From Haplodiscus bocki (lineage: Eukaryota): a DNA stretch of 64,000 nt. Made by a program: the position numbers and the translations under genes. The stretch is taken from NCBI GenBank assembly GCA_965655095.1, contig OZ296659.1, positions 38,936,001-39,000,000 of the forward strand. The letters are read 5' to 3'. Shown here piece by piece: positions 3,772 through 35,226 of this stretch. Numbering within the stretch: the first letter of the stretch is position 1; every line of letters begins with the position of its first letter. The notes beneath the pieces are model-generated. The model searched no databases. It was not told the DNA's origin and was given only the letters and a program-made list of their open reading frames with translations.

Positions 3772-3817
3772 ACGGCCCGGCTCATCTGGATTGTGCGCTT
3801 ACAGAAAAAAAAACGAT

Positions 3818-4790: not shown

Positions 4791-5240
4791 AACATGAAAC
4801 AGAACAAAAGATCATTCCTACCTGTGCACAAAAGGAAAAAAAACGGAAAGAAGGAAACGAAACACAAAAAAGGTGACACAGAAACATGTCTCAAGAGCTC
4901 TGATTTAGAAAACTGAAACAAGAATCTTAGGCGATGGGCGGCAGCGTGCGGAAACGCACATAGAAAGATACTAGCAAAGCTAGATCAAAAACACCAACGG
5001 GGTTGCAAAAGTAGCTCGCAAACGTGTTTAAAGACACCAAAAAAGTTGGTTAAAAAAGCGCACGAGCAATAACTCATATTTTTCGGAAAATTTGCGCGGA
5101 CACGTACGAAAAGAAGACGTCAACTGAAGTTGAGTGAAAGCGTGAGCAAGCTGAAAATGAAAGATGACTTAAGTGACAGTATGTGAAAATTAAATGAATG
5201 CATGAATCAAAAAATTGTGTTTTCAAGTGAAACTCTGCGC

Positions 5241-6922
5241 ATACTGCGGAAAAACGATGTCGGGGTAGGCTCGAAGTGGCAAAGAAGGAGCGCAGGGAGT
5301 AGTATATTTCGATGTTGGCGCGTCCGTTTGAAGCATAGTGTCACGTGCGATAGCGACCAGTGCTCGGAACTCACTTCACGTGAAGTTCAAAAACGAGGTG
5401 TCGACGTTTCCGTAGTCAGCTGGTATTGATTCTACGATGTGTATAAGCCGTCAGGAAGTTCCACGGATAAACTTTTGCGGTTGCCTAAAAAAGTGTTGCC
5501 ACTGTTGGCGAAAGAGATTAAATCTCCGCGAGAATGTAAGTGAAGACATTGTTATGGACAAAGTGGACAAGAGAAAAGCGGTACTAGTGGGTAGGTATGA
5601 TTGCAACAGGGCTGATGAGGCGAGCATATTGCAAGAGTGGTATCCGGCAATCGGTTTTGTGAGCTGATCGAGGGTTGTCTGCAACATGTGTTGAACAAAT
5701 GGAAGCTCAACTATTTCCGTTCTGAGTCTACCCAGAACGGATTGTCGCGTCTCTCCTGCAGAGTATGCATGACATTCTGTTGCACCTATGTCGGGGACGT
5801 GGAAAAAGTCGTTTTGAAGCGATGGGGTGAGTTGAACGCAAACCAAAAAAAACTCCGGCTGTGTTTCACAGAAGTCCATGACCGGATGCAATACAAGATC
5901 TCCTTGTTCAAACGAAATGACACTGTTACAGCTGGGTCGCATCACAAAAGCCGGGCACTGGATGGAAGAAAGGCCATGTGTTTGGTTCTCATTTCTGATT
6001 TGAGATTATGTGAGACAAGCCATCTGCGAGATAGATGGCTCACGGAGCGTCAGGAAGCAGAACTGAAACAATTTGACAGTTGCGGAGGGCTGGGATATCG
6101 TAATTGTAAAAGAGTGAACTCAAACAAATAAGTGTTTCGTCTGTTGTTCTGGAAAAAACGTTTTCGGCAGATTTTCATTTGGTTGTCCCCAGAAAACTGT
6201 AGCAAAGTGTGCGCTCCAATCTCAGCAAACCTCGTGTTATCAATGGATTTTGCGAGAATAGGATTTGTGAATGAGTACATGTAGGCTGTTCTCCCGTCAT
6301 TATTGGCTGATATAACTGTGTTGAATGGTATATATCAAATGTTCAAGAATTTGAATTCATTAGTGTGCCCAAAATAACGGATATGGCACAAGGAATGAAC
6401 GGGACTTCTAAGACATGGTGCTTTTTGTAATATATTGAGTCAAATCCAGGGCGTATTGTCGGTGACAACTTTGTTCCGTGGGTCATTGCCTCCTCCGCTA
6501 ACCTTTTGTAATTTTCTGTATTTTGTTGGGGTAAGAAGAATTGTGGCGTGATTAATCCAGCTAACGACGACACTGTGGAAAAGAGTGATATCCTGTAGGC
6601 GAAAAATGCTGCGCGGTATACTTTTAAATACGTGTATAGTGATCCCATTTGGTACACATGACTCCTGATTGATTGCAAAAGGTGCGTGTGTCGTACAATA
6701 ACATGGTAACAGTCGAGACTAGAGCTACGAATATTGTTGCGTTCACGAGGTAAGACTCCATTTGTTTCAATCGTACGCCTCCTACTTTCTCAATTTGCGA
6801 ACACTTTCTTGTGTTCCTTTAATGTCGTTCTCTAGTACGAGGAAATTCTTATCATTTCTCGTAGTCACCGTTCCAAAGTTTTCACAATTGCATTGAGTGC
6901 GCATGATGTGGTCCACTTCTTG
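5241..6922 (-). pseudogene. Copy B env remnant (C-terminal part only; N-terminus deleted)
   Basis: ORFs 6343-6678, 6050-6280 and 5451-5945 match copy A env, including the TM segment. At ~6922 the sequence jumps directly to the integrase tail. Confidence 0.85.
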
Positions 6923-9900
6923 TCATGATTGACGACATTGACGTGATTGCGATGGTTTATTCTGAGTTATGGGCATACGAGAGTGTCGAAGCAGGCAAGA
7001 GCGGAATTGTGGGTTTCCTATCGGAGGTGTTGCTACCTCAGGTGTAGGACATGGTATTGGGAGGTTGCTACAGGAAGAAGGTGTTGCTGTGGAAGGCAGA
7101 AAGTGTTGAAGTTTTGGCAAAGATGGCCACTCGGTGCAGTGGGTAAAATCGATTTCATTTTGAGGAGTGTGAGAACTAACCGTTCGATTTCGAATAGGTA
7201 CATTAGAGGTTGGAGCTGCAGTGTCAGAAGTTTTCTCTCCGGTTGGGACGTCCGTAGCACTGGGCTTCCTTCGGAACGGTCTCAAACAGTCGTAATACAC
7301 CACAGATTTTTTCGTGTGCTGACTTCTTTGATTTGCTAGTTTACGTCATTCAAACATTTCAGTATGGTGCAAGGACCACGCCCTGGGTTAAAAAAACTTG
7401 GCGTTTCGGCCAAGCGGTACCACTGGCGTATGTAAGAGCACTTCTTGTCCGTCTCTGTAGGTGGGGCCAAGTACCTTGTGATTATATATGGCGTTACACC
7501 GTCGCTGATTGTTGTTAAGATTGTCGCGGACCAACTGAAATGCTGGCTCGATAGGTTGTTTTCACTTATGGACAAATTCATGGACATTAGTTGGACATTC
7601 GGATTCTGGGCTGAGGAACATGAGATCCAAACGTAACGAAGTTTCTTGTCCGTACACCAACAATTGTGGGGTGTATACTGTGGATTCATGTACAGAGGGG
7701 CGATGACCCTCATAACGTAAGGAAGTTGTGACCAATTGCTTCGCTTTGCATTTATGCACTTGGCCAGCATGTTTTGGAAGTTGCGGTTCATACGCTCAAT
7801 GAACGCATTAGATTGAGGGTGGAAGGCTGTACTACGAGACATGTCTATCTCAAGAACAGAGAGTAGGTTCTTGAAGAGTCGACATTCAGAACCCTAATCA
7901 CTGTGTATACTATGTGGACAACCGAAACAGCTAATCCATTGTTCCATCAATGCATTGGTAGTTGTCGATGCTTTCTGGTTCTTTAGTGGTACAGCTTCAT
8001 GCCATTTAGTGAAGTGGTCGCCAATCAACAGGAATAATTTGCGTCCGTTGGATTCCAGTAACGGTTCCATGAAATGAATGCCAATGTGGCGGAATGGATA
8101 GTTAGTTTTCCAATCTACAAGAGCATCGCGATGTATTTTTGGGAGGTAACTTCGTTTCTCACATTCGAGACAACGACTGATCAAAAGTCTCTCATCTTCT
8201 TGGAACCCGGGCCAATAAAATCTCTGCTTGATATTGTCGGTGACTTTTGCCTCACCTAAGTGTCCACCAGTTCAGAAAGAGTGAATGGATTCCCAAAAGT
8301 TCCTCTACCAAAGTCTGAGGGACTATTTGTTGAAGAAAAGAAACGCGACCGTCTGTGGGGTTAAGTTTGCGATAAAGTAATCCGTCTGAAAATCAAACAC
8401 TAATAAAATGATTGTAAAGTTGCCAAGTTAACCGTGGACAACCCTAGAGGTCCTTTTTTCTGAGCGCAAGTGACTGTCGGAACCAATCTTTGACCAACTT
8501 CAATGATTCGTCTGCATCTTGGTTAATTCGGATTTTCTGGTGATCGAGGGGTCTGCATGATCAGTCAGGCTGCTTTTGGATGCGTTTTCTAACTCCGTTG
8601 AGCCCAAAATATACACTGTGAGGCGTAAGTGCGATGTTGCGAATTCCTTTTGTAACATTTTACAGACAAGGCGCCATTCTAGTTGGTCGATACCACAACC
8701 AAGTTTGGGCATACTGATTGCTCTGACATCACTGTCTTCTGAATGACGTCAGAGAGCCGCTAGAGATGTTCGCTAAGAGCATTATTTTAGAATGTGGAGA
8801 AATTGAACTTTGATGATGAGATGGTGGATGTATCTCTAACTTGACTCCAAAAATTGTGGTCAAAGTGATTTTTGGTGCAGAGTGCCATTTTTCGAGTAGC
8901 TTGTTGGATATTTTCCTTGAATGGTACGGGCGTTTCTAGCACTCATCTTGAAGTCCGAGGAGACACAATGAACAAGAGAATCGTTGGAGCTGATTATATC
9001 GCCAAATTTTTCATGGTACTCGAAGGTTCCAACTTCAGTGTTCGGGTTAGCAAGGAAGACGGGTGCAGTGGCTGCAAAGCTTGATGCGGGGTAATGAAAA
9101 GTTCAGTTGATAGCGTGTTCGGGTCAATTCATCGTTGAGCTTTGGGCCATTCTTCTTCTACTTTTGGCTTGCCTTCTGAAAGGTCAGTTACTTTGGGATC
9201 GTGGTGAAAAATCTGAATTTTAGCTTGAGGAATGCGGGACAAGCCATTGGCATGTGCAATTGATTTTCCGGGTTTGTTTCGAACCTCGTAGTTGAAGGCA
9301 TCCAATTTTTCGGGCCACCGTGCGGTTAAGCCATCGGGGTCTTTGACGTTGTACAGCCACTGAAGTGCTCGGTGATCCGTAACGATGGTAAACTTGCGAC
9401 CCAAAAGATAATGTCGAAAATGGCGTGTGAAGTGGACAATTGCCAAAAGCTCCCGCTTGGTTGCAGAATATCTGGTTTGAGCTTTCGAGAAAGCGTTAGA
9501 AGCGTAGTAAATGGCACGTTTTTTGCCATTTTGAACCTGAGCGAGAACAGCGCCCATTGCAGTCAAGCTTGCGTCTGTGTTCAAAATAAAAGGTTCTTTC
9601 ATTGATGGGAAAGCTAAAATGGGAGTCGTTAGGAGGCGTGCTTGAAGAGTTTCGAAGGCTGTCTGAGGTTCCTTCGTTGATTAGAAAAATAAAATTGGAA
9701 ACGTCAGGAGGCCTGCTGGAAAGATTTTGAAGGCTGCCTGTGCCTCAAGTGTCCAGTTGAAGGAAGGACTGTTTAATTTGTGGAGTGATTGAGCAATCTC
9801 GGTAAAGTTTTCAACATAACGGCGGTAGTTTGAGCAAAAAAACAGAAACTAAGTGACGTCTGTTTGACTGGTAGGGATAGGGAACGTTTCCCCTGCAGTG

Positions 9901-11557
9901 ATTCTTTCGAAGTCTAATTGTTGACCATTGGCGCTGAGGACATGTCCCAAAAAGTGGACTTTTGTTTTGAAGAACTCGCATTTCAATGGGTTTATTTTGA
10001 GATCTGCGTCACGAAATCGTTGAAGTACCGCGCCGGGTGTTTCTAAAAGCTCTTCAGGGGATGTGGCGACGATGATACGGTCATCCAAGTAAAAAAGAGT
10101 TGTTTTCCAGGTCGTACCTACTGAAGCAAGTTCCATTGAAATTTGAAAAGTGTTGGGATAACCCGCAAGACCTATAGGCATTCGGAAGCATTTGTAAGAG
10201 CCAAAAGGGTTGCTCAACGCTGTGAACTCTTGACTCATCCATTGATAAGTGATGAAAGCCCCAGAACATATCGGTCGTCGAAAAGAAAGCACTTCCTTCT
10301 AGCGTGTCGAAGATTTCAATGGACGGTATGGACCAACAAGTCTTGATTGTTTGCTGATTCAGCAATTCAGCTGTCTGTAGTCTATTAATAATCTCAACAT
10401 GCTTTTTTCGTTGGGATCAGCATGGCTGGTGCGCTACATGCGTTTTGGCACGGCTTTGAAAGCTCTTTGTCAAGAAACGCTTCGATCTTTCCTCTTAGAT
10501 CTTGCTTCTAGTGTAGAGGCAGTCTTCGCTTCGGTATTTTGCTGGCTTTGAACCTGAGTAAACATCAATCTTGTGACTCTTGGCGCAGCATTTGCTGATG
10601 TCCCGTTGATTTTTCGAAAGAATATCTGCGAATTCTTGCTCAAGTTCAGCAAACCTCTGCCTCCTTTGGATGGGTATCGCCGGACTGATTGCGTCTATGA
10701 CTTACTTGATTTCATAGGACTCATCAACTTCAATTGTTTCCGATTTCGGTGGTGCGGAAATTCTGTGATTCAACGCTTGCTTTGGAAAAAATTCAGAGGT
10801 ACCCAATGTTGTGTTGTCAAACACCGTGATTACTTCATCCTCGGTATTTTCAATTGTGACCGGTATATTTTCTTCTACGAAGTCGAGGAAGACGTTGGGG
10901 ACCACAGCATTTTTCAAAATACTTATTCGTGCCACCGGTTCGAATAGAGCGGGCATTTCTGTCAATGGTCATTCCTATTCTTGTATCTGGGCTGGATAAA
11001 TCACGGCATGTGTAGCAGGCACAGAGACGGTTTCAGTTACTATTACCTGAAAAACTGTGTGTAGTTCATGATTGAGTTTACGGTGATACAATGGTACATG
11101 ATTCTTGGAGCAGGTGATCCAATTGAAGTAGGTCCTCGGAAAACAAAGGGTTGCATTTGTGAATTCTCAGGAATTCGAGTCCTACAAAACAATCTGCTTC
11201 CGAATCGATGAGCACGTGAAATTCGTGCTCGTAATGTATAAGACCGATGGTGATCGGTGGGCGGACTGTTTCTCATGAAGTAATTTGCAGCTTTTTTGCA
11301 GCCATGGGTTTAGTTTCTGTCGGTATATGTTTCAATTTCCCCACTTTCCCACTTTCTGCAACTTATCAAAAACATTAGAGCTCAAACAAGACACTTGTTC
11401 CACTGTCACAGACTGCTTCGACAGTTTTATCAAAAACCGCCAATCTTAGAAATACACTCATGTAATCAACCAAATAATTGAATGTTCGAATTTGTGGGCC
11501 TATCGTGGTGGTCGCGTCTGTGCTGCAATCGGTGGGCGTAGAGTTTTTTAGTTTAAG
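6923..11557 (-). pseudogene. Copy B pol (PR-RT-RNaseH-macrodomain-IN), heavily disrupted
   Basis: Fragments include AVCDSG (PR), YLDD (9849-10292), TDAS/RELLAIV (9129-9602), MPKLGCGIDQLEW (8500-8712), and IGDHFTK/HSD plus TAFHPQSN..ERMNR (7336-8184). Confidence 0.9.
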
Positions 11558-12559
11558 GAACGACTTCTTTTGGACTTGCCGTCACTTCGGAAATAACCCG
11601 GTTCCAGGCAATTGAGATGAGCCATGCAGTCTTTGTTGTCATGCTTGGCTCTTTTGCAAAACTTACATGCGCTCTTGTTAATGCCATATTCGTTTCACTT
11701 CTTGCGCGGGCTATTTTGAGCCTTTGTCCCGATTATTTTAATCAAACCTGCAAAAGTTCGTCTTTCCTCGTTCTTGAGGAGATTGGAAACTAACAGGGCG
11801 AGTGCTATTTCTAGAACCACTGCTCAGTGAACGTGACCACTTGATATTCTTGTTGCTCTTGAAGCCTGGTTGCACTTGGGTACTTTGCAACTGTGAGTTT
11901 TGCAAACTTTGACTCAGCAAGTGGACAATTTTTCCCAAAGTTTTGTTTGATGCACTCTGTGATTCTCGGTTAACACTTTGTGTAATTGTGGAGTTTCCGT
12001 TCTCAATTTATGAAAACGCGTTTAGCTCCATTGCGGCAGTTAAGGCGAGGAACGCTGCCATATCTTGCTTGGGTTGCTGCTTCACAGCTTTAAGACGTGC
12101 TTTCGAAATGTCGTCATTGTTTGTTTAATTCGGTCGGAACGCCTCATTCAGCAAGTCAAAATTTGTCTGTTGTTCAAACGAGAGTCTTGTGTAGAAGTGA
12201 AGGGCGTTTTGCTTCAGGCGGAGGGCGAACAAATGCAGTTGGTTGTCATGAGTGTTGGAGTCCACTCCTGAGAAGAGGGTGGATGTGCTGAACTGTTGCA
12301 AAATATCTTCAAAATCGCTTGTGTCTGTGAATGACTCAGGCATTAGGCACGAGGGGAGTGGTGTGACGTATGGGAAGCATCGTCTTCCTTGTGGACTGCC
12401 TGGCAAGGCAAGGAAATTTGCACCAATGGCGTTTGGAGTTTGGGTTTTCCTTGACCAGCTTGTTCGGTGATTCGTTCCGGGAGATTTACTTAGGTTCTTC
12501 TGTCAATGTTGTTGTCCTTGTTGGTTAGTGAACGTCGTTGGAGGAGGCAAACTTGACGT
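11548..12559 (-). pseudogene. Copy B gag (start codon mutated to ACG, internal deletion, frameshifts)
   Basis: ORFs 12125-12406 and 11738-11938 match copy A gag. Confidence 0.85.
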
Positions 12560-12589
12560 TTTTGCGGCAATTTTTTGTTACAAAAAGCT

Positions 12590-13262
12590 TTAGAATGGGT
12601 TCATCCTTCTTGAGGTGAAGTTTATGGGAGTATACTCAAGAAAACAGAAAGAGGACGAATTTGACACATGTAGGAGAAGAAGTTCAATATGCCAACGCCA
12701 AATATTTGCTAAGTGGGGAAAGAAATGCGCGCACCATGATTTCACACTAGAATTTTGAGTGCTGGGAAAAAAGCGGAGTTGATGTTGTCCAGTCAAATGC
12801 TTCCAATAATGTATTGCTTCCTGTCGAAGATGAACACTCAACTGGTGGGGTGTGAACAAAAAATCTGGTAGTTGCGAGAAAGGAATTTTGAAAATTTTTG
12901 CTTTACGAAAATAAGAATGTGTGTTTCAGGAACGGTATTCGAAAACACGGACACAGGGATGCAAAAAGGGAACAATTTTCGTAGTCTTTATCATTGTTCA
13001 AAAAAGTTTTTTTCATTTTCGGAGGTTGGAACGTTTTAACAAGTATCGTTTACACGGTTTACTTCGTACGCTAGACCGCAAATCGCTAGAATGATCATCA
13101 GCAGCGCGAAATTTTGGATTATTATCAAGAAAGACACAGACAAATCGAAAACAACGGTCTGGAACGGGCTTCATCGTAAGAAGGCGGCGGACCGATCGGT
13201 CGGGTGTTTTGATGCGATAAGACGTACAACGGCAGATGCGAATGAGGGTGAGAACACGGCAT
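12590..13262 (-). pseudogene. Copy B leader ORFs (PPxY membrane protein and Cys/His ORF), disrupted
   Basis: Translates to ...GPPPSYDE... and FALLMIILAICGLAYEVNRVNDTC, then FTPHQLSVHLRQEAIHYWKHLTGQ; both match copy A. Confidence 0.7.
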
Positions 13263-13622
13263 TTACAAAACTTCACGGAAACGCAATGAAAAAACCAAAA
13301 ATATCAGAAAAAGAAATTTCGTTTTGTCTAAGTACTCACGTGTGTGTCCTATTGCTTAGGGGAATGAAGGATACCGGGTCAGCTTCGCCAAGACTCGCAT
13401 AAATGCCGATGAAGTGCCAAGAACACGCCGAAGCGGTAGGAGCACAGCAAAAACTGGAAAACTAAGCACGGACTATGTCCGGAGAGAGATCTTTTCGGCG
13501 TCACTGGAAAACCAGGAACAGGCAGAAAGAAGACTTTTCAAGGGGGAATGGGTCTGGGCCGGACAACTATTTGGGGAACTAGGTGAATTTCACAATTTTA
13601 GAGAAAATTTTTCAACAGAGAT

Positions 13623-13640
13623 ATCCCTCTCCTGTCACCT
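13623..13640 (-). promoter_or_regulatory. Primer-binding site, tRNA-Leu-like (left copy)
   Basis: Plus strand ATCCCTCTCCTGTCACCT matches 15/18 the vertebrate tRNA-Leu(CAG) 3' end ATCCCACTCCTGACACCA (recalled sequence) and abuts the LTR. Confidence 0.7.
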
Positions 13641-13928
13641 TTACAACAATCGCCTATTTTCTTTGTTTTAATTTCGTTTTTAATGGGTCTTGAAACGAGC
13701 GGGGCAATTGTTGGGAAATTCAAAGTTGCTATTTCTTGGTGCTGTGAATGGGAAATCTCCAGTGAAAAACAAATTTGCAGAAAAGGAAACAGCTTTACTT
13801 ATTTTGTAAAGTGTTAAGCGAAACACAACAAAATTGACAGTAACAGAGTCACTTACAGTTGGGTGGTTTCTTGTTGATCATTCAGCTCTTCTATTTTTAC
13901 TACTCATATTACGTAGACGCATTACTCA
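13641..13928 (-). repeat. 5' LTR of copy B, left part (continues at 26547-26620)
   Basis: Homologous to 3411-3698; broken at CTCA by the copy A insertion. Confidence 0.85.
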
Positions 13929-14574
13929 TTTAACAATCGCTTGTTTTCGTTCTTTGGATTTTCTCTTGAACAGCTCTCGAAATGCGCGGGGCGATCGTTG
14001 GGGTTTTAAAGTTGCTATTTCCTGGCGTTAAAAAGGGGGATATCTCTATTGAAAAACAAATTTGCAAAGAGAAGAAACGGCTTTAATTAATTTTAGTTAT
14101 AGTTAAACAGAATTTTTACATTCTGTACAAGACAAATTATCAGACAAGATAGAATGAGAAAAACTACTCGACTTACATTTCAGTGGTTGAGGGTGGGTAT
14201 GAATAGCTGAGTTTTTACTTTTTTCGATATTAATTTCTCTGCAGCTGCAAGTTGCGAGTCAGGTGAAGAGCAGATGTAAACAGTCAAAATAAAACAATAA
14301 TAGCTCATGAAAAGTAATTTTTAAAATAAAGCAACAATAGATTTAAACAAAATTCACATTTGCACTTTCAATATGCAGGTGAATTTAATAATTATCACAG
14401 CGCTAAGCGCAAAGACATATGAACGTATTTATGTTATTAACGGTTATAAAATAACACAAGAAAGAATATGCAGCAGTCTTTTTTTGTATATGTAGCTGAA
14501 TCTTTCCCTTTTTTAAAAGGCTTTTGTTAAAAAAAATTGTTAGTCATCGATTTCCCTTTCTCCGCTCCGTTATA
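13929..14574 (-). repeat. 3' LTR of copy A (646 bp)
   Basis: About 98% identical to 25902-26546; element-strand termini TATAAC...GTTAAA; directly preceded by the PPT. Confidence 0.92.
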
Positions 14575-14588
14575 CTACCCCCACCCAT
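14575..14588 (-). promoter_or_regulatory. Polypurine tract (ATGGGTGGGGGTAG)
   Basis: G-rich tract immediately upstream of the 3' LTR on the element strand. Confidence 0.75.
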
Positions 14589-14601: not shown

Positions 14602-15333
14602 TCACGAGCTAACAGTCGCGGTGTAGGCTATGAAGGGGGGGTTGCAGACCATGCAGGTTCGAAGTTGTTGTTGAGCGCGCCGGACGCCGTCCACACCGCA
14701 ACAATTGTAGACTTGGCGCAGATGTCGATTTAGGAGGATAGTTTTGGCTTCTTGAACAAGGGGGACAAGCGGGGCAGTGTTGGCGGGTGCGCTGGGATTT
14801 TTGTCCGGATGAATCAATAGAAGAATGTGACGGGCACGCGAGTTAAGTGTGTCAGCGGAGGCAGTTGGTAAGCAGCATAAAAGGTCATATAACATGGACT
14901 CTGGTGCGAAGTCGAGGGTCGTGGGGTAAGTTGACATTTGATGGAGTAACATTTCCTTATACGCCTGATGGAGTTGGGGATTTACTGCAGCGGCCTTGAG
15001 AGAAGACACTTCTTCAGTTAACTCGAAGGTACGAGCAAGCAAGCTGGAGTTTTCATTCAGAGCAGTTAAACGTTGATTTAAAGCAGTAATTTTAGTTTCT
15101 TTCTCTCGCAGTTCTTGCACAGTTTTTCCAAGAACCTGGAAAGTGTTGCTAGCGGCCACGCGGGCTTCTTCAAAGCCTTTTTGGAGGCGTTGCACGGAAT
15201 CAAATTCCGTCACAAGAAGCTCCATGGCCTCTTCTGCGTCCATGGAGGCGTCTAAAGCTACATCAAAGGTGTCAGGGAGGACAGGAGGTGGTAACGGAGG
15301 AGAGCAGACAATTTTCAGTGGGCTCGTTGACAT
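14602..15333 (-). CDS. Accessory protein: Pro-rich N-terminus, coiled coil, DnaJ-type J-domain (HPDKNP) and Cys-rich tail
   Basis: Intact 243-aa ORF. MLYDLL..PTASADTLNSRARHILLLIHPDKNP...VQEAKTILLNRHLRQVYNCCG follows the J-domain pattern Y.IL....AS...I...YR.LA...HPDKNP...AY.VL.D...R..YD..G. Conserved in copy B. Confidence 0.8.
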   Translation of the reverse strand: MSTSPLKIVCSPPLPPPVLPDTFDVALDASMDAEEAMELLVTEFDSVQRLQKGFEEARVAASNTFQVLGKTVQELREKETKITALNQRLTALNENSSLLARTFELTEEVSSLKAAAVNPQLHQAYKEMLLHQMSTYPTTLDFAPESMLYDLLCCLPTASADTLNSRARHILLLIHPDKNPSAPANTAPLVPLVQEAKTILLNRHLRQVYNCCGVDGVRRAQQQLRTCMVCNPPFIAYTATVSS

Positions 15334-15575
15334 TCACACTGATGGACTGGGAAGGGGGAGGAGGAACCCAGAGCTGGTTAGCTGCACGAACAAAAGGGCG
15401 GTTCTGGGGAGCGTTGATTTTCTTGAGAGTGACATTTTGGGATGTCGGGTTGATTCGAATAACACGATACTCGAAGGGATCTAGCAGTCGCACGAGATGT
15501 CCAGGAGCCAAGTCCGCGACGCGGCCAGAGCAGGTGACGAAAGGGGCAGCGCCCGAAGAAACAGCTGAAGAGAGC
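15272..15575 (-). CDS. Accessory ORF or exon with a beta-rich (SH3/KOW-like) segment, overlapping the J-ORF start
   Basis: RVADLAPGHLVRLLDPFEYRVIRINPTSQNVTLKKINAP is conserved in copy B. It is preceded by the strong acceptor TTTTTCTTTCTGTTTCAG|G (AG at 15577-15576). Confidence 0.55.
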
Positions 15576-16038
15576 CTGAAACAGAAAGAAAAATTTGATT
15601 GACTTATGTTACGATTTAAAATGACAGACTGAACAGGACAACATGCAAACAGCAAAAAGACCGGGGGCACGGGAACGTGTCAGAAGGCACTGATTGAGGA
15701 AACTCAAACAGGAGGGAGTATCTTAGGCGGTAAGTGGCACCGTACGGAAACGCACGTTGAAAGACACTAGCAAAGCTAGGTGAAAACATCAACAGGGTTG
15801 AGAAAGTAGCACGGAAACATGCTTAGGGACACCAACAAAAATTGGGAAAATTAGTGTATGAGCATAAGTCATGTTGTTGGAGGAAATTGTACGGACACGT
15901 ACAAAAAGAAGACATCAACCGAAGTTGAGTAAAAGCGTAGGCGAGCCAAAAATGAAGGATGACTTGTGTGACAGTATGATGAAAGTTGAATGCATGCATA
16001 AAACACAGAATTAAACACTTTCATGTTGAAGTCTGGGC

Positions 16039-18353
16039 CTACTGCGGTGAGGCAATGTCGGGGTAGGCTCGCGGCGGTAGAGCGGGCGCACAAGGAGAAG
16101 TGTAGTTCGACGGTTGCGCGTTGGCTTGAGTCATAGTCTCTCGTGCGAGAGCAACCAGTGCTCGGAACTCATCCGATGTAAGGTACAAAAACGAAGTATC
16201 AGTTTTTTCGTAGTCTGCTGGGTTTGATTCGACGATGTGTATAAACCGTCCGGAAGTTCCACGGAAGAACTTTTGCGGGTGCCGAAAAAGGCGTTGCCAC
16301 TGACGACGAAAAAGGGTGAAGCTCAGTGAGAATGTAAGTAAAGACATTGTAATAGACAACGTGGACAAGAGAACAGCGATACGAGTGGATAGGTAGGATT
16401 GCAACGCGGCTGATGTGGCGGGCGTGATGGACGAGTAATACTCAGCAATCGGTTTTGTGAGCTCATCGAGAGTGGTTTGCGACATGTGTTGAACATCCGG
16501 AAGTTCAGCTAATTCTATTCTGAGACTACCTAGAACGGATTGTCGCGCCTCTCCTGTAGATTATGCTTAAAATTCGGTTGCACCTATGTCAGAGACGTGG
16601 GAAAAAACGTTTTGAAGTGATGGAGTAAGTTCGATAGAAGCCAGAAAAGGCTCCGGTTGTGTTTCGCAGAAATCTATGTCCGGATGCAAAACAAGGTCGC
16701 CTTGATTAAACGAAATGATGCTGTTACAGCTGGGTTGCATCACACATGCCTGGCACTGGATGGAAGAGATCGAAAGACCATGTGTTTGACTATCATTTTT
16801 GATTTGCAGCGTCGCGGTGCGTGAGATTATGTGATACATGCCATCCGCAAGATAGAAGGCTTGCGGAGCGTCAGGCAGCAGAACTGAAATGACTTGACAG
16901 TTGCGGAGGGCCGGAATATCGTAATTGTAAAAGAATGAACCTAAACAAAGGAGTGTTTCATCTGTTGTTGTGGGAAAACCTTTTCGGCAGAGTTTGATTC
17001 GATTGTTCCCGGAACACTGTTGTAGTGTGTGCGCTCCAAGCTCAGCAAACCTCGTGTTATCGGTGGATATTGCGAGAAAAGGATTTGTGAATGTGTACAA
17101 GGAGGCTGTTTTCTTGTCAATATTGAGCTGATATAACGGTGTGGCATGGTATACATCAAATGTTGAAGACTTCGAATTCTTTGGTATGTCCAGAATAACG
17201 GATATGCCACGAGGAATGAGCGTGACTTCTAGGACAATTTGTATTTCGTAATGTATTGCCTCATAACCAGGGCGTATTGCCGGTGACAACTTTCTTCCAC
17301 GGGTTACTTCGTCATCTGCTAACTCCTTGACAATTTCAGCGATTTGTTGGAGTAACAAGAATTGTGGTGTGATATAACCACCGGATAACGACGAGATTGT
17401 CGAGAAGAGTGAAATTTTGTAGGCAAAAATGCTGCGCGATATGCTTTCAAATGTGTGTTTAGTGTTACCATTTGGTACACATAATTCCTGACTGCTTGCA
17501 AAAGGTGCATGTGTCGTACAATGACATGGTCACATGCGAGACAAGTACGGGCCAAGAATAGCGTTGCGTTTACGAGGTGGAATTCCATTTGTTTGAATCG
17601 TACGTCTACTACTTCCTTCAATTTATGAACACTTTCCTGTGTTCCTTTGATTTCGTTTCCCACTAGGAAGAAATTTTTATCGTTTCTCGTTTGCACACGT
17701 TCCAAATTTTTAACAATTGCGTTCTGTGTTCGCATGATGTTGTCCACATCTCGTGACAGAGCATCGTTGTTTTTACAGAGGTTGAAAATTGACAGCACAT
17801 TGCATGCAGCATTTTTAATTGGTTCTCCACGAACTAATCCGGCGCCGGCTGCCACTGCTGCAATCGCTCCAATAGCTCTGCGTGATCGGCCACCCGGTTG
17901 TTGGTCCCTTCGTGCACCGGGCGGAATGAAGGAATTAGCTACGTCCAATAAACTTTTTTCCTCTTCCAACGCTGCCGTCAGCTCATATTCTAAAAAGCTA
18001 ACTCTTGTCTCAAGTTGCTGGAGAAGGAGGGCATATGTTTCATTGAAATACATATACTTGCAGTTTTTATTGATGTACATGACACCAATTGAGTCAGGGG
18101 CCCGTTTGAAAGCTTCAACCATGTATGTTGCTTGGGTCAGGTTAAATGCCGGAATCCGAGGGAACGGTGAGAAAATACGGACTTTACTCTCGCTCTCGGA
18201 GGTAACCGCTTGATATTTGAAAACAAAAGCAGCGCCTTTCTTGAAGACTGGTTTAGCCAAGTCATCACCCACATGAGTGGTAAACTGCATCTGGAGCTTG
18301 ATTATGGGCAAGAAGACACTCACTAGTAGAACCGGGAGAATCAGTTGCTTTAT
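16039..18353 (-). CDS. env: Envelope glycoprotein, class I fusion type (baculovirus F / errantivirus Env-like); one frameshift and one stop
   Basis: Signal peptide (I)KQLILPVLLVSVFLPII, with ATA at 18353 probably from ATG. Furin site RSRR followed by fusion peptide AIGAIAAVAAGAGLV, heptad repeat, Cys-rich ectodomain, TM IAVLLSTLSITMSLLTFSLSFTLF and cytoplasmic tail. Spans ORFs 17319-18506, 16567-17358 and 16039-16485. Confidence 0.9.
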
Positions 18354-18618: not shown

Positions 18619-21600
18619 TCAACGTTCGATGTTCCTGTGGTGTTTGTGAACCAACGCGAAGCTTCGCGGCGGCTTAATCGATGATTTTTCCTTTGCGAGA
18701 ACGTCCACCAGGTCGGCTTGTTGGGGTGCTGGGGGAAAACATTTTGTTGGACAGTCTTCCAGAAACAGGTGAACTGGAAGGAATACTAGTTCGATTTTCG
18801 TTGGATGTTGAAGTCGACGTTGGCGTGATTGGTGTGGTTTGTGCTGATTTTTGGCCGTACGGGAGCGTCGAGACAGGTGTGTGTGGGACTGTGACTGTCC
18901 CCATCGGGGGTGTTGGTATCGCAGGTATAGGACAAGGTTTTGCGAGGTTGCCACCTGAAGAAGACGTTGCTATTGAAAGTGAAAACTGTTGAGGTAATGG
19001 TAAAGATGGCCACTCGGTGCAGTAAGCATGATCGATGTCGTTCTGACGAGTTGAAGGCCTAGGCATCCGATTTCGAGTTGGTATCATTGGAAGTTGAAGT
19101 CGCAGGCTCAGGAGTTTTCTCTCTGGTCGGGATGTTCGTAGTGGGGGGCCTCCTTCGGAATGGTTTCAAACGATCGTAATGTACCACGGATTCTTTTCCT
19201 GTACTGACTTCTTTGACTTGATAATTTACGTCATTCAAGCATTTCAGTATAGTGTAAGGACCACGCCATGGGCTGAAAAACTTGGGACTTTGGCCAACCG
19301 GTACCACTGGCGTATGTAAAAGCACTTCTTGTCCGTCTCGGTAGATGGGGCCATGTACCTTGTGATTGTATATGGCGTTACGCCGTCGCTGATTCTTGTT
19401 AAGATTGTCGCGGACCAACGCAAATGCTCGCTGAAAAGCTTGTTTTCTCTGATGGACAAACTCATGAACATTAGTTGTACAATCGGATTCTGGGCTCGGG
19501 AACATGAGATCCCAAGGTAATGAAGTTTCTCGACCATGCAGCAAGAACTGTGGGGTGTATCCTGTGGATTCATGCACAGAGGATCGATATGCCATCATGA
19601 CGTAAGGGAGTTGTTGTGACCAGTTGTTTTGCTCTGCGTTTATGCACTTCGCCAGCATGTTTTGGAGGGTGCGGTTCATACGCTCAATGACCGCATTAGA
19701 CTGAGGGTGGAAGGCTGTCGTACGAGACTTGTCTATCTCGAGAAGAGATTAGTAGGTTCTTGAAAAGTAGAGATTCAAAATTGCGTCCTTGGTCACTGTG
19801 TATGCTATGTGGACAACCGAAGTGACTAATCCAATGTTCAATCAATGCAGTGGCAGTTATTGATGCCCTCTGGTCCGGTAGTGGTACAGCTTCATACCAT
19901 TTAGTGAAGTGGTCGCCAATCAAGAGGATGACTTTGTGTACGTTGGATTCCGGTAAGGGTCCCATGAAGTCAATGCCAATGTGGTGGAAGGGATAGCTAG
20001 CTTTCCAATCTACAAGAGCATGGCGATGTGTTTTTGGTGGGTTGCTTCTTTTCTGACATTGGGGACAACAACTGATAAAAAGTTTCACATCTTCTTGGAA
20101 ACCGGGCCAATAAAATTTTTGCCTAATTTTTTCGGTAACCTTGGCTACACCCAAGTGTCCACCAGTTGAAGTCGAGTGAGTAGATCGCAAAAGTTCCTCT
20201 ACCAAACTCTGCGGAACTGTTTGTTGAAGAAAAGAAACGCGACCGTCTGTGGGGTCAAATTTACGACAAAGTACTCCGTCGGAGATACAAAGGCTGCTAA
20301 ATTGATTGTAAAGTTGCCAAGTTAGCCGTGGACTACCCTGGAGGTCATTGTTTCTTGGTACACGTGACTGTCGAACCCAATATTTGACCAACTTCAATGA
20401 TTCGTCTCCATCTTGCGCAATTCGGATATTTTTAGTGAATGAGGTGTTCGCATGATCAGTCACACTGCTATTGGGGGCTTCTTGTAACTCCGTGGAGTCC
20501 AACATATACACTGTGAGGCGTATTTGCGAAGTTGCGAACTCCTGCTTTAACATTTTGCGGACTAGGTGCCATTCTAGTTGGTCGATACCACAACCAAGTT
20601 TGGGCATGCTGATTGCTTTGACATCAATGTCTTCCGCATGACGTCGAAGAGCCGCTAGAGACGTTCGCAAGGAGCAATATGTTGGTTTGTGGAAAAATCG
20701 AACCTTGGTTAGGAGATGGTAGATGTATCGTTGGCTTGACTCTAGAAACTGTGGCCAAAGTGATTTTTGATTGAGAGTGCCAAACTTTGGGTAGTTTGTC
20801 GGGTACTTTCGTCGAAAGGTACGGGCGATTCCAGCACTCATCTTGAAGTCCGAGGAGACACAGTGAGCAAGAGAATCGCTGGAGTTGAAGATATCGCCAA
20901 CTTTTTCATGGTACTGGAAGGTTTCAACTTCAGTGTTCGGATTAGCCGAGCAAGACGGATTCCGTGGCTGCGGAGCTTGATGGGGGGTAGTAAGGACTTC
21001 AGTTGGTAGCGTTTTAGGGTCAATTCCTGGTTTGGCATTGGCACATTCATCTTACACCGTTGGCTTGACTTCTGAAAGATCAGTCACTTTGGGATCGTGG
21101 TGAACTATCTGCACTTTAGCTTGAGGAATGCGGGACAATCCAACGGCATGTCCAATTGATTTTCCCGGTTTGTGTCGGACCTCGTAGTCAAAGGTGGCCA
21201 GTTTCTTGAGCCACCGTGCGGTTAAGCCATCGGGGTCTTTGAAGTTGTGCAGCCACTGAAGTGCTCGGTGATCCGTAACGATGGTAAACTTGCGACCCAA
21301 AAGATAATGTCGAAAATGGCGTGTGAAGTGGACAATTGCCAAAAGCTCCCGCTTGGTTGCAGAATATCTGGTTTGAGCTTTCGAGAAAGCCTTAGAAGCG
21401 TAGTAAATGGCACGTTTTTTGCCATTTTGAACCTGAGCGAGAACAGCGCCCATTGCAGTCAAGCTTGCGTCTGTGTTCAAAATAAAAGGTTCTTTCATTG
21501 ATGGGAAAGCTAAAATGGGAGTCGTTAGGAGGCGTGCTTGAAGAGTTTCGAAGGCTGTCTGTGCCTCAGGTGTCCAGCCGAAGGAAGGACTGGACTCGGT

Positions 21601-23368
21601 TAATTTGTGGAGTGGTCGAGCAATCTCGGCAAAGTTTTCAATATAACGGCGGTAATATGAGCAAAGACCCAGAAACGACTTTACCTCTGTTTGACTGGTG
21701 GGGATAGGGAATTTTTTTACTGCAGCGATTTTTTCGGGATCTACTTGTAGACCATCGGCGCTGAGGACATGTTCCAAAAAGTGGACTTGTCTTTTGAAGA
21801 ACTCGCATTTCAGTGGATTTATTTTGCGATTTGCTTCACGAAAACGTTGGAGTACGGCTCGAAGTCTTTCTAAATGCTCCTCAGGGGTTGCGGCAAAGAT
21901 GATACAATCGTCCAGGTAAGGGAAAGTGCTCTTCCACGTCAGACCTACCAGGACATGTTCCATTAAACTTTGGAAAGTGTTTGGAATTCCCGTGAGACCC
22001 ATAGGCATGCGGAGCTATTTGTAAGAGCCAAAAGGGGTGCTAAACGCTGTGAAGTCTTGGCTCTTTTCATCCATTGGTAACTGATAAAAGCCCCAGGACA
22101 TATCAATTGTCGAAAAGAAAGCACTTCCTTCTAATGTGTCGAATATTTCTTCAATGGACCGTATGGGCCAACAGGACTTGATGGTTTGTTGATTCAGTTG
22201 TCTGTAGTCTATTAATAATCTCAACTTGCCATTTTTCTTTGGAACCAGCATGGCTGGTGCGCTATACGGACTGTGACACGGCGTTATAAGTTCTTTGTCA
22301 AGAAACGCGTCAATCTTTTCTCGTAGATCTTGCTTGTAGTGGAGAGGTGATCTTCGATTCGGTAGTTTGACGGGCTTTGAACCCGGGTAAACATCAATCT
22401 TGTGACTTGTGGCATCGCATTTGCCGAAGTCCCATTGATTTTTTGAAAAAACATCTGCGAATTGTTGCACAAGTTCAGCGAATTTATTCCACACTGGTAT
22501 CGCTGGACTGATTGAGTCTATAACGTGCTTGAGGTCATACGACTCATCAATTTCAATTGTTTTTGACTTCGGTGGTGGGGAAACTATGTGGTTCAATGCT
22601 TGTTTTGGAAAGAATTCAGAGGTACCCAATGTTGTGTTTTCGTACACCGTAATTACTTCATCCCCCGGTATTTTTATTTGTGACCGGTACATTTTCTTCT
22701 GCGAAGTTGAAAAGGACGCTGGGGACCACAGCGTTTTTCAAAGTACTTATTCGTTCCACCGGCTCAAATAGAGCGGGCAATTCCATCAATGGTCGTTGCC
22801 ATTTTTGTATTCTGGCTGGCAAAATCATGGCATATCCAGCCGGCACGGAGACTGCTTCCGTCGCTATCACCCGAAAAACTGTGTTCACTTCGTGATTGAG
22901 TTTACGGTTATACAATAGTACATGATTCTTGGAATCCAAGCGAAGCAGATCTTTGGAAAACAACGGGTCGCATTTGTTAGTCCTCAGGAAGTCGAGTCCC
23001 ACCAGACAATCTGCCTCCGAATCGATGAGCACGTGAAAGTTGTGCTCGTAGTGTTTAGGACCGATGTTGATCGGTAGGCGAACTGTTCCTCTTGAAGAAA
23101 TTGGCAGCTTATTTGCAGCCACGAGTTTAGTTTCCGTCGGTATAAGTTTCAATTTACCCAATTTTTGAAGCCTATCAAAAACTACTGAGCTGAGGCAAGA
23201 CACACTTGCTCGACTGTCGCAGACTGCCTCGATTGTTTTACTGAAAACAGTCAATTTTAGAAACACACTCCTGTGGTCAACCACGGAATTGAGTGTTTGA
23301 ATTTGTGGGCCTATCCTGGTGGTCTTGTCTGCGCGGCGACCCGTGGGCGTAGACTTTTCTAGTTTAAA
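18619..23368 (-). CDS. pol: Pol polyprotein (PR, dUTPase-like spacer, RT, RNase H, macrodomain, integrase with GPY and Pro/Thr-rich tail); a few stops and frameshifts
   Basis: AVCDS(R)AS; LVPKKNGKLRLLIDYRQLN; YLDD; TDAS...RELLAIV...TDHRAL; HHCC (H..GGHLG...C..C); IDFMGP / IGDHFTK / HSDQG / ERMNRTL; WRGPY...VHYDRLKPF. The 3' end is approximate. Confidence 0.96.
20505..20921 (-). other. TARG1/OARD1-type macrodomain in frame between RNase H and integrase
   Basis: GDIFNSSDSLAHCVSSDFKMSAGIARTFRRKY...RYIYHLLTK...HKPTY..L..SL......ISMPKLGCGIDQLEW..V...L...F....I.LTVY reproduces the OARD1 motifs. Confidence 0.92.
23307..23368 (-). promoter_or_regulatory. gag-pol -1 ribosomal frameshift signal (UUUAAAC plus stem-loop or pseudoknot)
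   Basis: TTTAAAC (23368-23362) lies just before the gag TAG, and pol is in the -1 frame. After a 7-nt spacer, GTCTACGC pairs with GCGCAGAC, and loop GGGTC can pair with downstream GGCCC. Confidence 0.8.
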
Positions 23369-24516
23369 GAATCATTTCTTTTGGACCTGCAGTCCCTTCG
23401 GAAATGACCGGGTTTCAGGTAATTGGAACAAGCCTTGCAGTCTTGGGAATCATGGTTTGTTCTTTTGCAATGTTTATATGCGCTCTTGTTACTGTCGTGT
23501 TCATTGCGCTTTTTGCGCTGGCTACTTGAACCATTGTCCCGATTTTGGTTATCAGACCTGCGAAAGTGAGTCCTTCCCCGTTCTTGGGGAGATTGGAACC
23601 TAACAGAGCGAGTGCTACTTCTAGAATCATTGCTCAGTGAACGTGACCGCTTCATGTTCTTAATCTCATTGGAGCCTGGTTGCACTTGGGTACTTTGCAA
23701 CTGTGAATTTTGCAAACTTTGGCTCAACAAGCGGACAAGTTCTTCCAAAGTTTCGTTTGATGTACCCTGTGCTACTCGGTTAGCACTTTGTGTGACTGCG
23801 GAATTTCCGTTCTCAATTTCTAAAAACGCGTTGAGGTCCATTGCGGCAGTTAAGGCGTCGTCCGCTGTTTGGGGTTTCGCTTTCCGCAGTTCCCACCGCT
23901 AGGTTTTGTCGTCGAGTCCTTCTACAAACGTGGTCAAGGCCATTGGGTCTATCATTTCATGAAAATCACGATAGGCGCGCCTGGCAAGGGTGCGGACATC
24001 GCAGAGGAACGCTGCGATATCCTGCTTTGGTTGCTGCTTCGCAGCTTTAAGACGTGCTTTCAAAATGTCGCCATTAGTTGTGTAATTCTGTCGGAACGCC
24101 TCAATCAACAAGTCAAAATTTGTCTGTTGTTCGCACGATAGTGTTGTGTAGAAGTGAAGGGCGTTTTCCTTCAGGCGAAGAGCAAAGTATTGCGGTCGGT
24201 TGTCATGAGTGTTGGAGTGCCATCCTGACAAGAGGGCGGCTGTGTTGAACTGTTGCAAATAATATTCAAAATCGTTTGTGCCCGTGAAGGACTCAGTCAT
24301 TAGGCATGAAGGGAGTGGAGTGACGTATGGGAAGCCTCGTCCTCCTTGTGGACTGCCTGACATTGCAAGGAAATTTGCACCGGTGGCGGTTGAATTCTGG
24401 GTGTTCGTTAACCCGCTGGCTTGGTGATTACTTCCGACAGAGTTACCTGGATTCGTCTGAGAATGTTGTTGTCCTTGTTGGTTAGTAGGAGTCGTTGGAG
24501 GAGGTGAGTTTGACAT
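23359..24516 (-). CDS. gag: Gag (capsid-like region plus two degenerate CCHC knuckles); frameshift near 23900
   Basis: ESFTGTNDFEYYLQQF...SGW...FALRLKENALHFY...; knuckles (Y)KHCKRTNHDSQDC and CSN(Y)LKPGHFRRDC. Confidence 0.92.
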
Positions 24517-24625
24517 TTTTATCTCTCTCTCTCGTTACAAAAAAGAATTTTTTTTAGAGTCGGTTCATGTTTCTTGAGGTGAAGTTTATGGGAGCACACT
24601 CAGGAAAACCCTAAAAGGATGGATT

Positions 24626-24968: not shown

Positions 24969-25235
24969 TTAAAAAAAGGTTTTATCACTTTTTGAAGTTT
25001 GAATGCTTTGACAAGTAACGTTTACACGGTTTACTTCGTACGAAAGACCGCAAAGCGATAGGACGATCATCAGCAGCGCGAAAGTTTGGACGATAAACAA
25101 AAACGTTAAAAAACAAATCGAAAACAACGGTCTGGAACGGGCTTCATCGTAAGAAGGCGGCGGACCGATCGGTCGGGTGTTTTGATGCGATAAGACGTAC
25201 AACGGCAGATGCGAATGAGGGTGAGAACACGGCAT
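24969..25235 (-). CDS. Small single-pass membrane protein with PPPSY (PPxY) motif (88 aa)
   Basis: PPPSY, then a ~25-aa hydrophobic segment, then an NVT sequon and Cys. Copy B retains the hydrophobicity, the sequon (NDT) and the Cys. Confidence 0.65.
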   Translation of the reverse strand: MPCSHPHSHLPLYVLSHQNTRPIGPPPSYDEARSRPLFSICFLTFLFIVQTFALLMIVLSLCGLSYEVNRVNVTCQSIQTSKSDKTFF

Positions 25236-25595
25236 TTACAAAACTTCACGGAAACGCAATGAAAAAACCAAAAATATCAGAAAAAGAAATTTCGTTTTGT
25301 CTAAGTACTCACGTGTGTGTCCTATTGCTTAGGGGAATGAAGGATACCGGGTCAGCTTCGCCAAGACTCGCATAAATGCCGATGAAGTGCCAAGAACACG
25401 CCGAAGCGGTAGGAGCACAGCAAAAACTGGAAAACTAAGCACGGACTATGTCCGGAGAGAGATCTTTTCGGCGTCACTGGAAAACCAGGAACAGGCAGAA
25501 AGAAGACTTTTCAAGGGGGAATGGGTCTGGGCCGGACAACTATTTGGGGAACTAGGTGAATTTCACAATTTTAGAGAAAATTTTTCAGCAGAGAT

Positions 25596-25613
25596 ATCCC
25601 TCTCCTGTCACCT
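25596..25613 (-). promoter_or_regulatory. Primer-binding site, tRNA-Leu-like (right copy)
   Basis: Same 18-mer as 13623-13640. Confidence 0.65.
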
Positions 25614-25901
25614 TTACAACAATCGCCTATTTTCGTTGTTTTAATTTCGTTTTTAATGCCTCTTGAAATGAGCGGGGCAATTGTTGGGAAATTCAAAGTT
25701 GCTATTTCTTGGTGCTGTGAATGGGAAATCTCCAGTGAAAAACAAATTTGCAGAAAAAGAAACAGCTTTACTTATTTTGTAAAGTGTTAAGCGAAACACA
25801 ACAAAATTGACAGTAACAGAGTCACTTACAGTTGGGTGGTTTCTTGTTGATCATTCAGCTCTTCTAATTTTACTACTCATATTACGTAGACGCATTACTC
25901 A

Positions 25902-26546
25902 TTTAACAATCGCTTGTTTTCGTTCTTTGGATTTTCTCTTGAACAGCTCTCGAAATGCGCAGGGCGATTGTTGGGGTTTTAAAGTTGCTATTTCCTGGCG
26001 TTAAAAAGGGGATATCTCTATTGAAAAACAAATTTGCAAAGAGAAGAAACGGCTTTAATTAATTTTAGTTATAGTTAAACAGAATTTTTACATTCTGTAC
26101 AAGACAAATTATCAGACAAGATAGAATGAGAAAAACTACTCGACTTACATTTCAGTGGTTGAGGGTGGGTATGAATAGCTGAGTTTTTACTTTTTTCGAT
26201 ATTAATTTCTCTGCAGCTGCAAGTTGCGAGTCAGGTGAAGAGCAGATGTAAACAGTCAAAATAAAACAATAATAGCTCATGAAAAGTAATATTTAAAATA
26301 AAGCAACAATAGATTTAAACAAAATTCACATTTGCACTTTCAATATGCAGGTGAATTTAATAAATATTACAGCGCTAAGCGCAAAGACATATGAACGTAT
26401 TTATGTTATTAACGGTTATAAAATAACACAAGAAAGAAATTGCAGCAGTCTTTTTTTTGTATATGTAGCTGAATCTTTCCCTTTTTTAAAAGGCTTTTGT
26501 TAAAAAAAATGTTAGTCATCGATTTCCCTTTCTCCGCTCCGTTATA
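25902..26546 (-). repeat. 5' LTR of copy A
   Basis: Direct repeat of 13929-14574, followed by TSD CTCA. Confidence 0.92.
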
Positions 26547-26620
26547 CTCATATTACTCAGCTAAAAGTCTTCCAGTTATTGTAACGCAAATGTTCTTTTC
26601 TCTTTTTTTTGTTTGTTATA
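26547..26620 (-). repeat. Remainder of copy B 5' LTR (begins with the copy A TSD)
   Basis: Matches 3695-3770 (CTCAGCT.AAAGTCTT.CAGTTATTGTAACGCAAATG...GTTTGTTAT). Confidence 0.85.
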
Positions 26621-34616: not shown

Positions 34617-34777
34617 GTTAGTAAACACCCGTTACTCAGAGTTTTCTGCAAAAGATGGTTGATATAGTATAAAGATTTTGGGATCTGAAAGGGCAATGTT
34701 AATACATCGTGATCCAATTCATGAGCTCCGTTTCTTCGGATCACGGAAAAGTTGGCAACTCCAGTAATGTCCATTAC

Positions 34778-35009
34778 NNNNNNNNNNNNNNNNNNNNNNN
34801 NNNNNNNNNNNNNNNNNNNNNNNNNNNNNNNNNNNNNNNNNNNNNNNNNNNNNNNNNNNNNNNNNNNNNNNNNNNNNNNNNNNNNNNNNNNNNNNNNNNN
34901 NNNNNNNNNNNNNNNNNNNNNNNNNNNNNNNNNNNNNNNNNNNNNNNNNNNNNNNNNNNNNNNNNNNNNNNNNNNNNNNNNNNNNNNNNNNNNNNNNNNN
35001 NNNNNNNNN
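34778..35009. other. Assembly gap (232 N)
   Basis: Run of N. Confidence 1.
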
Positions 35010-35226
35010 ACCAACACCAACACCAACACCAACACCAACACCAACACCAACACCAACACCAACACCAACACCAACACCAACACCAACACCAACACCAACA
35101 CCAACACCAACACCAACACCAACACCAACACCAACACCAACACCAACACCAACACCAACACCAACACCAACACCAACACCAACACCAACAACACCAACAC
35201 CACCACCACCAACACCACCACCACCA
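35010..35226 (+). repeat. (ACCAAC)n hexamer microsatellite abutting the gap
   Basis: About 30 perfect units, decaying into (ACC)n. Confidence 0.97.

Follow-up and report, generated by a model that had tools for sequence, protein, structure and literature searches.

Human TARG1 (also known as OARD1 or C6orf130) reverses both Glu/Asp-linked and thymidine-linked ADP-ribose through K84, according to PMC8501950. Two further papers describe how TARG1 reverses marks set by PARP3 on DNA ends (PMC5725667) and, at unligated Okazaki fragments, marks set by PARP1 on single-stranded DNA (PMC11102865), and the physiological or defensive role of DNA ADP-ribosylation in animals is an open question in PMC11102865 and PMC8501950. 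Macrodomains have some precedent in retroelements, as the original prediction for the locus described here had noted: a review reports that fish epsilon-like endogenous retroviruses carry ORFs with a macro domain (Basta et al. 2009, cited in PMC4977317). Captured enzymes in LTR retrotransposons include AlkB in an orchid gypsy element (PMC9289625) and GDSL and DEDDy ORFs in rotifers (PMC5408684). Env-bearing Ty3/gypsy elements with an F-type env are widespread in animals, as described by Chary and Hayashi (PMC13524379), so the pairing of a macrodomain with env is not the newer part that the original prediction had taken it to be. The newer part is that TARG1-type domains, as judged from their sequences, turn up again and again in Ty3/gypsy Pols that are not related to one another, and that their place in Pol varies. 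For the domain in the present locus, we prefer an integration-linked role, in which a hydrolase tethered to integrase would clear ADP-ribose, and we give this reading a probability of roughly 0.45.

The window, the whole stretch of 64,000 nucleotides of Haplodiscus bocki DNA that was analysed, contains a Ty3/gypsy element, copy A, which runs on the reverse strand in the order gag, protease, reverse transcriptase (RT), RNase H, macrodomain, integrase, env-like gene, unnamed ORF, and J-domain ORF (Table 1). The closest solved relative of this element is Ty3. Copy A is flanked by 1.44 kb repeats that are ~99% identical, and copies A and B are 77-84% identical over the coding regions. A purine tract was found in copy A, while its inner LTR boundary and primer-binding site were not located. 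Both copies in the window are decayed, and neither yields an intact Pol; besides the lesions listed in Table 1, copy A has a stop near 18676 and a second integrase frameshift near 19085. The DNA just outside the 5′ repeat of copy A (26549-26620) resembles the end of copy B (3700-3780), which suggests that copy A inserted into a B-type LTR or underwent recombination with one.

Table 1. Positions of the features in the window
Feature	Position	Strand	Remarks
TARG1/OARD1-type macrodomain, copy A	20497..20919	-	uninterrupted; K84 and D125 equivalents present
gag (Retrotrans_gag)	23359..24534	-	split by stop
aspartic protease	22970..23269	-	
reverse transcriptase and connection	21505..22245	-	stop near 22017
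RNase H	21130..21504	-	
linker between RNase H and macrodomain	20920..21129	-	low conservation; in-frame stop 21052-21054
integrase N-terminal extension (putative) and zinc finger	20020..20430	-	directly after macrodomain
integrase core and C-terminal domain	19086..20019	-	frameshift near 19749
env-like gene	16024..18290	-	broken in copy A; RxRR site, then hydrophobic peptide
unnamed ORF after env	15272..15679	-	dN/dS 0.27 between copies
accessory ORF with J-domain	14602..15333	-	HPD motif kept; just inside 3′ repeat
LTR-like repeat 5′ of copy A	25113..26548	-	~99% identical to 13140-14576
LTR-like repeat between copies A and B	13140..14576	-	purine-rich tract before repeat
copy B	3411..13139	-	older, heavily broken, in tandem with A; own J-domain ORF 3818-4249
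decayed macrodomain, copy B	~8602..9024	-	five stops, frameshift each side; Lys and Asp kept
1156-codon open frame	52683..56153	+	no Pfam match; may resemble mesothelin/otoancorin-type repeat proteins
PLAC8-family ORF	58848..59453	+	
assembly gap	~34770..35250		adjoins six-base tandem repeat
A-rich low-complexity tract	42677..42908		

The env-like gene and the J-domain ORF lie 3′ of Pol in both copies, and the linkage of the macrodomain-bearing Pol with these genes was seen in the two window copies only. Among 4328 candidates, 20 unbroken relatives of env (754-798 aa) were found, in clusters of up to 141 members, and all five relatives shown have the RxRR site and the hydrophobic peptide. The gene probably encodes a class I/F-type fusion protein, with the F-type assignment resting on the Atlas leads (Fusion_gly, Baculo_F, and haemagglutinin at 0.91-0.95); the env fold model has low confidence (pLDDT 50), and neither its structure matches nor its profile matches are reliable enough to establish the type. 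The J-domain ORF is under purifying selection, with a dN/dS of ~0.19 between the copies, and its motif is HPD in copy A and HPE in copy B. Its dS between the copies exceeds 2, as compared to ~0.35 in Pol and env, and the synonymous sites are thus near saturation. This excess suggests a recombinational exchange of the accessory region at the 3′ end.

The stop-free stretch 19696-21051 of copy A comprises the linker, the macrodomain, and the integrase zinc finger and core, and the frame is shared by the RT and RNase H further upstream. The original prediction of a complete macrodomain that follows RNase H and precedes the zinc finger of integrase is thereby borne out for copy A. Its end coordinate, 20921, belongs to another frame that gives stops, and the right frame starts at 20919. 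The domain had also been described as complete and in frame in both copies, which is not the case: the linker stop lies upstream of it in copy A, and the domain of copy B is read in one frame with the five stops, between frameshifts near 9052 and 8533. The catalytic motifs had been given as the Lys of LLTK and the Asp of GCGID. Both are found in copy A, as the equivalents of K84 and D125; in copy B, GCGID is kept and the Lys is in LIIK instead of LLTK.

Where does the fusion exist in an unbroken Pol? The long-candidate search gave five matches among 68, and three of them are Pol polyproteins: P0001 (1189 aa, 22 members), P0002 (1593 aa, seven members), and the distant P0003, whose macrodomains are 95%, 60%, and 44% identical to the window domain, respectively. 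In P0001 and P0002, RNase H, the macrodomain, and integrase are fused within a single open frame, while the domain of P0003 follows RNase H. An Atlas search with the RNase H-macro-integrase segment returned no usable match. Two unrelated unbroken Pols, P0106 and P0144, have the macrodomain C-terminal to integrase, and the domain adjoins integrase in four of the five unbroken Pols (P0001, P0002, P0106, and P0144). In P0028/P0034 and P0143/P0169, it lies near gag or protease, away from integrase. The Pol of P0003, which its motifs suggest to be errantivirus-like, has a possible cleavage-like motif after the domain, as judged by eye, which would leave the domain on RT.

Residues 1353-1513 of P0144, directly after the macrodomain, form a Tpt1/KptA-like (RNA 2′-phosphotransferase) domain (Pfam E=3e-6). 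Tpt1, CNPase, and macro enzyme types belong to one tRNA-splicing pathway, and this arrangement counts for a role in RNA-end or tRNA-primer metabolism, in which the macrodomain would act during reverse transcription and free the primer or the genomic RNA of ADP-ribose caps or of ADP-ribose-1''-phosphate-type products. The CNPase or macro ORFs of fish endogenous retroviruses (PMC4977317) point in the same direction. However, the catalytic motifs of the Tpt1-like domain in P0144 look degenerate by eye, the domain has no match to the solved Tpt1 structures, and the window element contains nothing Tpt1-like. We therefore regard such a role as very unlikely.

The identity of the domain was assessed by several comparisons. 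In a PDB sequence search with 15 matches, the best five are human TARG1/C6orf130 (E 3-4e-29, 104-105 bits), and the other 10 score at most 28.5 bits, with DarG at 28.5 and 23.4 bits. The Pfam Macro model matches the copy A domain weakly (E=0.004, below the cut-off). In the TARG1 alignment, K84 stands opposite the Lys of LLTK, and D125 opposite the Asp of GCGID, as numbered by the offset from the 152-residue length of human TARG1. This numbering agrees with PMC6397177, which gives the TARG1 pattern as TKx(30,35)Px[IL]GxGxD with the catalytic K84 and D125. The pattern is present in copy A, P0001, and P0002; of the rows labelled as elements, 12 of 24 have it, as do 107 of the 136 remaining rows. 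All 15 of the tallied TARG1 site positions are kept in copy A and P0001, as are the ADP-ribose pocket residues D20, H32, C33, S35, T83, P118, G123, and Y150; the Y150 equivalent is His in P0002. The AlphaFold model of the copy A domain, built on 85 relatives, has a pLDDT of 96, and TARG1 takes the first eight places among its Foldseek matches, with a best TM of 0.90; DarG comes next (0.83). Because the alignment behind the model was built from TARG1-like matches, this fold result is not independent of the sequence. Judged from its sequence and its model, the copy A domain belongs to the TARG1/OARD1 subclass that had been predicted for it, and it shows every TARG1 feature that could be tested. 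A MacroD identity was ruled out by the ranking in the PDB sequence search and by the fold search.

The macrodomain evolved under purifying selection. Between copies A and B, its dN/dS is 0.32 (26.5 of 90 synonymous versus 35.5 of 318 non-synonymous sites; Fisher P=9e-5), whereas the same DNA read in two wrong frames gives 1.15 and 1.07. The other Pol regions give 0.38-0.53 (linker 0.45), and the C-terminal tail 0.92. Since other Pol regions, including the linker, score like the macrodomain, this test detects coding constraint rather than catalytic constraint. Between P0001 and P0002, the domain is 63% identical, as compared to 76-89% for RT and RNase H, 64% for the integrase N-terminus, 41% for the linker, 35% for the tail, and 14% for the spacer.

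The catalytic residues were then considered by position. The original prediction had named a lack of constraint on them across the family as grounds against it; K84 and D125 are, together with K90 and G123, invariant in all seven family representatives, which have a mean identity of 49% and share 32 of 142 columns invariant in all. The 160-row tree places the window domain in a 22-row clade (SH-aLRT 99), in which D125 is kept in 22 of 22 rows, only five of 136 columns are invariant, and K84 is kept in 18 rows. The four exceptions (P0006, P0023, P0053, and P0065) all have Asn at this position and are short pieces, representing either decay or a variant. Outside the clade, both the catalytic Lys and the Asp are kept in 11 of 11 rows.

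These patterns bear on two alternatives. The domain could be a passenger or a structural spacer, that is, an exon taken from the host that does no harm in the Pol bridge and is kept just folded and in frame. A dN/dS below 1 is expected of any folded in-frame insert, and the bridge region tolerates varied inserts (PMC13524379). In contrast, families that are 45-60% identical retain the active-site residues in particular, and the invariance of D125 amid so few invariant columns likewise argues against a mere spacer, which we find most improbable. Alternatively, the domain could be a reader, a chromodomain-like tether that would recognise ADP-ribosylated chromatin, or the poly(ADP-ribose) found at breaks, and direct integration to such sites. 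The placement in P0106 and P0144 corresponds to the chromodomain position given in PMC13524379, and TARG1 moves to damage sites PAR-dependently, as PMC8501950 states. A pure reader, however, needs neither the catalytic Lys nor the Asp, and the retention of both in the seven clade representatives and the 11 outside rows makes this alternative unlikely. The retention of the catalytic pair speaks for hydrolysis rather than for reading only, and the macrodomain is probably an active hydrolase in the unbroken members.

How widely has the domain spread? We sampled the best 150 of 3446 relatives. The 160-row tree was built after 16 rows with fewer than 100 aligned positions had been dropped, including P0005, a thrips gene model with gag-like, Ig, and partial macrodomain segments that is possibly chimeric. 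In the clade of the window domain, 13 rows have recognisable Pol flanks and nine are too short to tell. Among the best 150 of 3446 relatives, nine have a retroelement Pfam domain, and three more have Pol-like flanks. In unrelated Ty3/gypsy Pols, TARG1-type domains occur after integrase, after protease, or near gag, and the RT-RNase H identity among the macrodomain-bearing lineages is 27-46%. The domains of P0106 and P0144 are 54-55% identical to non-element TARG1-like proteins, versus 46-47% to other element-borne domains. In our 55-row tree, the window domain is apart from the two DarG outgroups. This tree requires six changes for 14 element rows, and the element rows come together in 0 of 200 bootstrap trees; a single element clade is not rejected by the AU test (p=0.154). 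Repeated capture of the TARG1-type domain is thus likely from its position and sequence similarity, though unproven by the tree.

Several further occurrences were observed among the relatives. P0063, P0070, P0014, P0016, and P0147 form a second, separate TARG1-type clade, and the domain of P0063 follows an apparent integrase C-terminal tail, by eye. Fusions of TARG1-type domains involve ligase III-type, PNKP, NADAR, TatD with Ulp1, SLOG, and HMG box partners (P0073, P0085, P0107, P0119, P0133, P0062, P0145, P0166, P0157, P0068, and P0112). The phages L001 and L002 (Fusobacterium and Lactobacillus) have stand-alone TARG1-like genes that are 33-39% identical. The domain of P0003 groups with that of Hubei virga-like virus 22 (P0004) with support of 98/94 on a long branch, and an exchange between an element and an RNA virus is possible.

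The viral occurrences bring in a further alternative, cytoplasmic counter-defence, for which the alphavirus and coronavirus macrodomains are the model. Here the hydrolase would strip antiviral mono-ADP-ribosylation from element proteins or RNA, or from host signalling proteins, independently of integration. Selection on the catalytic pair, the use of several Gag-Pol positions, and an element that bears an env with many unbroken relatives would all be consistent with such a role. In addition, P0004, a virga-like RNA virus without a DNA stage, has a domain of the same subclass, 207 phage records match the domain, and TARG1-like genes are present in many viral genomes, according to PMC4245714. 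On the other hand, the macrodomains with which viruses counter PARPs are of the MacroD type, and the fold search places them lower than both TARG1 and DarG, and the domain adjoins integrase in all of the unbroken Pols except P0003. We consider cytoplasmic counter-defence rather unlikely.

We now return to the integration-linked role. In the solved RT chain of Ty3, which has 478 aa, the motif ending RNase H aligns up to residue 475-477, and the chain ends about three residues further on. The macrodomain starts 70-95 residues downstream of this Ty3-homologous RT boundary. Since the RT chain ends just after the RNase H motif, the macrodomain falls beyond the corresponding boundary, towards integrase, and the linker probably holds the RT/integrase cleavage site. 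It is plausible that the macrodomain travels with the RT/integrase complex, and its position points to the integrase side.

We propose that the protease would first cut Pol just after RNase H, as in Ty3. The macrodomain would then stay at the N-terminus of mature integrase and travel with the cDNA. The element DNA may be recognised by the host PARPs that respond to DNA ends, nicks, and single-stranded gaps, and these would then modify the ends of the cDNA, the integration intermediate with its gaps, and the acidic residues of nearby proteins with ADP-ribose. Finally, the tethered domain would strip these marks locally via its Lys/Asp pair, which would allow strand transfer and host gap repair to finish.

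Retroelement cDNA ends and gapped integration products are substrates of the sort on which TARG1 acts. Among the best 150 of 3446 relatives, five are fused to a ligase III-type ligase or BRCT domains and one to PNKP, and these fusion partners are DNA-end enzymes. The integration-linked role is favoured because TARG1 acts on DNA ends and gaps and because six relatives are fused to DNA-end enzymes. Several points count against it. To our knowledge, most Ty3/gypsy elements do without a macrodomain. K84 is replaced by Asn in four of the 22 clade rows, the domain is far from integrase in some elements, the RNA virus P0004 has one as well, and both window copies are dead. Moreover, DNA-end marks are removed by several host hydrolases, according to PMC5725667, which counts against the need for a private copy.

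A selfish element keeps only an enzyme that pays, and a selected TARG1 domain on integrase would therefore imply that ADP-ribose marks act on retroelement integration or replication. An eraser domain on the integrase side thus suggests that ADP-ribose tags matter when such elements insert. A broader proposal, possible but in our view doubtful, is that Ty3/gypsy elements of several animal lineages repeatedly and independently captured a working TARG1 at either end of integrase, because the ADP-ribose that host PARPs place on DNA ends would hinder retroelement integration in a way not recognised so far. If this is true, then the fusions would be to eukaryotic mobile elements what anti-DarT defence is elsewhere, and they would make it possible to test directly if integration is restricted by ADP-ribosylation of DNA.

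In the literature searched, which excluded most subscription journals, Repbase, and bioRxiv supplements, we found no report of a TARG1-type domain in a Ty3/gypsy Pol. Term searches of the texts of PMC13524379, PMC8672886, PMC5210030, PMC9289625, PMC7729036, PMC10221186, PMC5408684, PMC4245714, and PMC10499221 gave the same null result. The word “macro” is absent from the main text of PMC13524379, and so is used there for no bridge domain. It occurs 10 times in its seven supplementary files, and the four occurrences shown are species names; this paper also has unnamed “pseudo” or “mini” outlier domains.

Among the known systems, the DarG macrodomain of DarTG shares the subclass fold (TM 0.83-0.86) and the catalytic Lys, and the NCBIfam and PADLOC DarG models match the macrodomain part (E 1.5e-13 and 4.7e-16). 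The window domain, however, scores 50.8 bits against a cut-off of 250 and covers only profile positions 14-147 of 338. It lacks the C-terminal DarG domain and a DarT partner, and its neighbours are RNase H and integrase. A DarG identity was therefore ruled out by the bit scores, the profile cut-off, the missing DarT, and the fold ranking, and the tree likewise separates the two. The alphavirus and coronavirus macrodomains (MacroD type) share the macro fold (TM ~0.7) and possibly a common counter-PARP logic, but they differ in subclass and mechanism and are 13-19% identical. The fish epsilon-like endogenous retroviruses are, like the present element, reverse-transcribing elements with an env that carry a macrodomain; they belong to Retroviridae rather than Ty3/gypsy, and the review describes their macro domains as additional ORFs. 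The orchid gypsy AlkB is likewise a captured host enzyme and an eraser of a host mark. Chromodomains and dUTPases are also captured domains in LTR retrotransposons. AlkB, GDSL, and DEDDy are separate ORFs, whereas the window domain is fused within Pol and, by its sequence, would target ADP-ribose. The closest system is TARG1 itself, with which the window domain shares ~40% identity (E=3e-29), the fold, the sequence pattern, and the equivalents of K84, D125, H32, C33, S35, T83, P118, and Y150. While human TARG1 is a free protein, the window domain sits in a retroelement polyprotein and belongs to a long-branch clade of its own.
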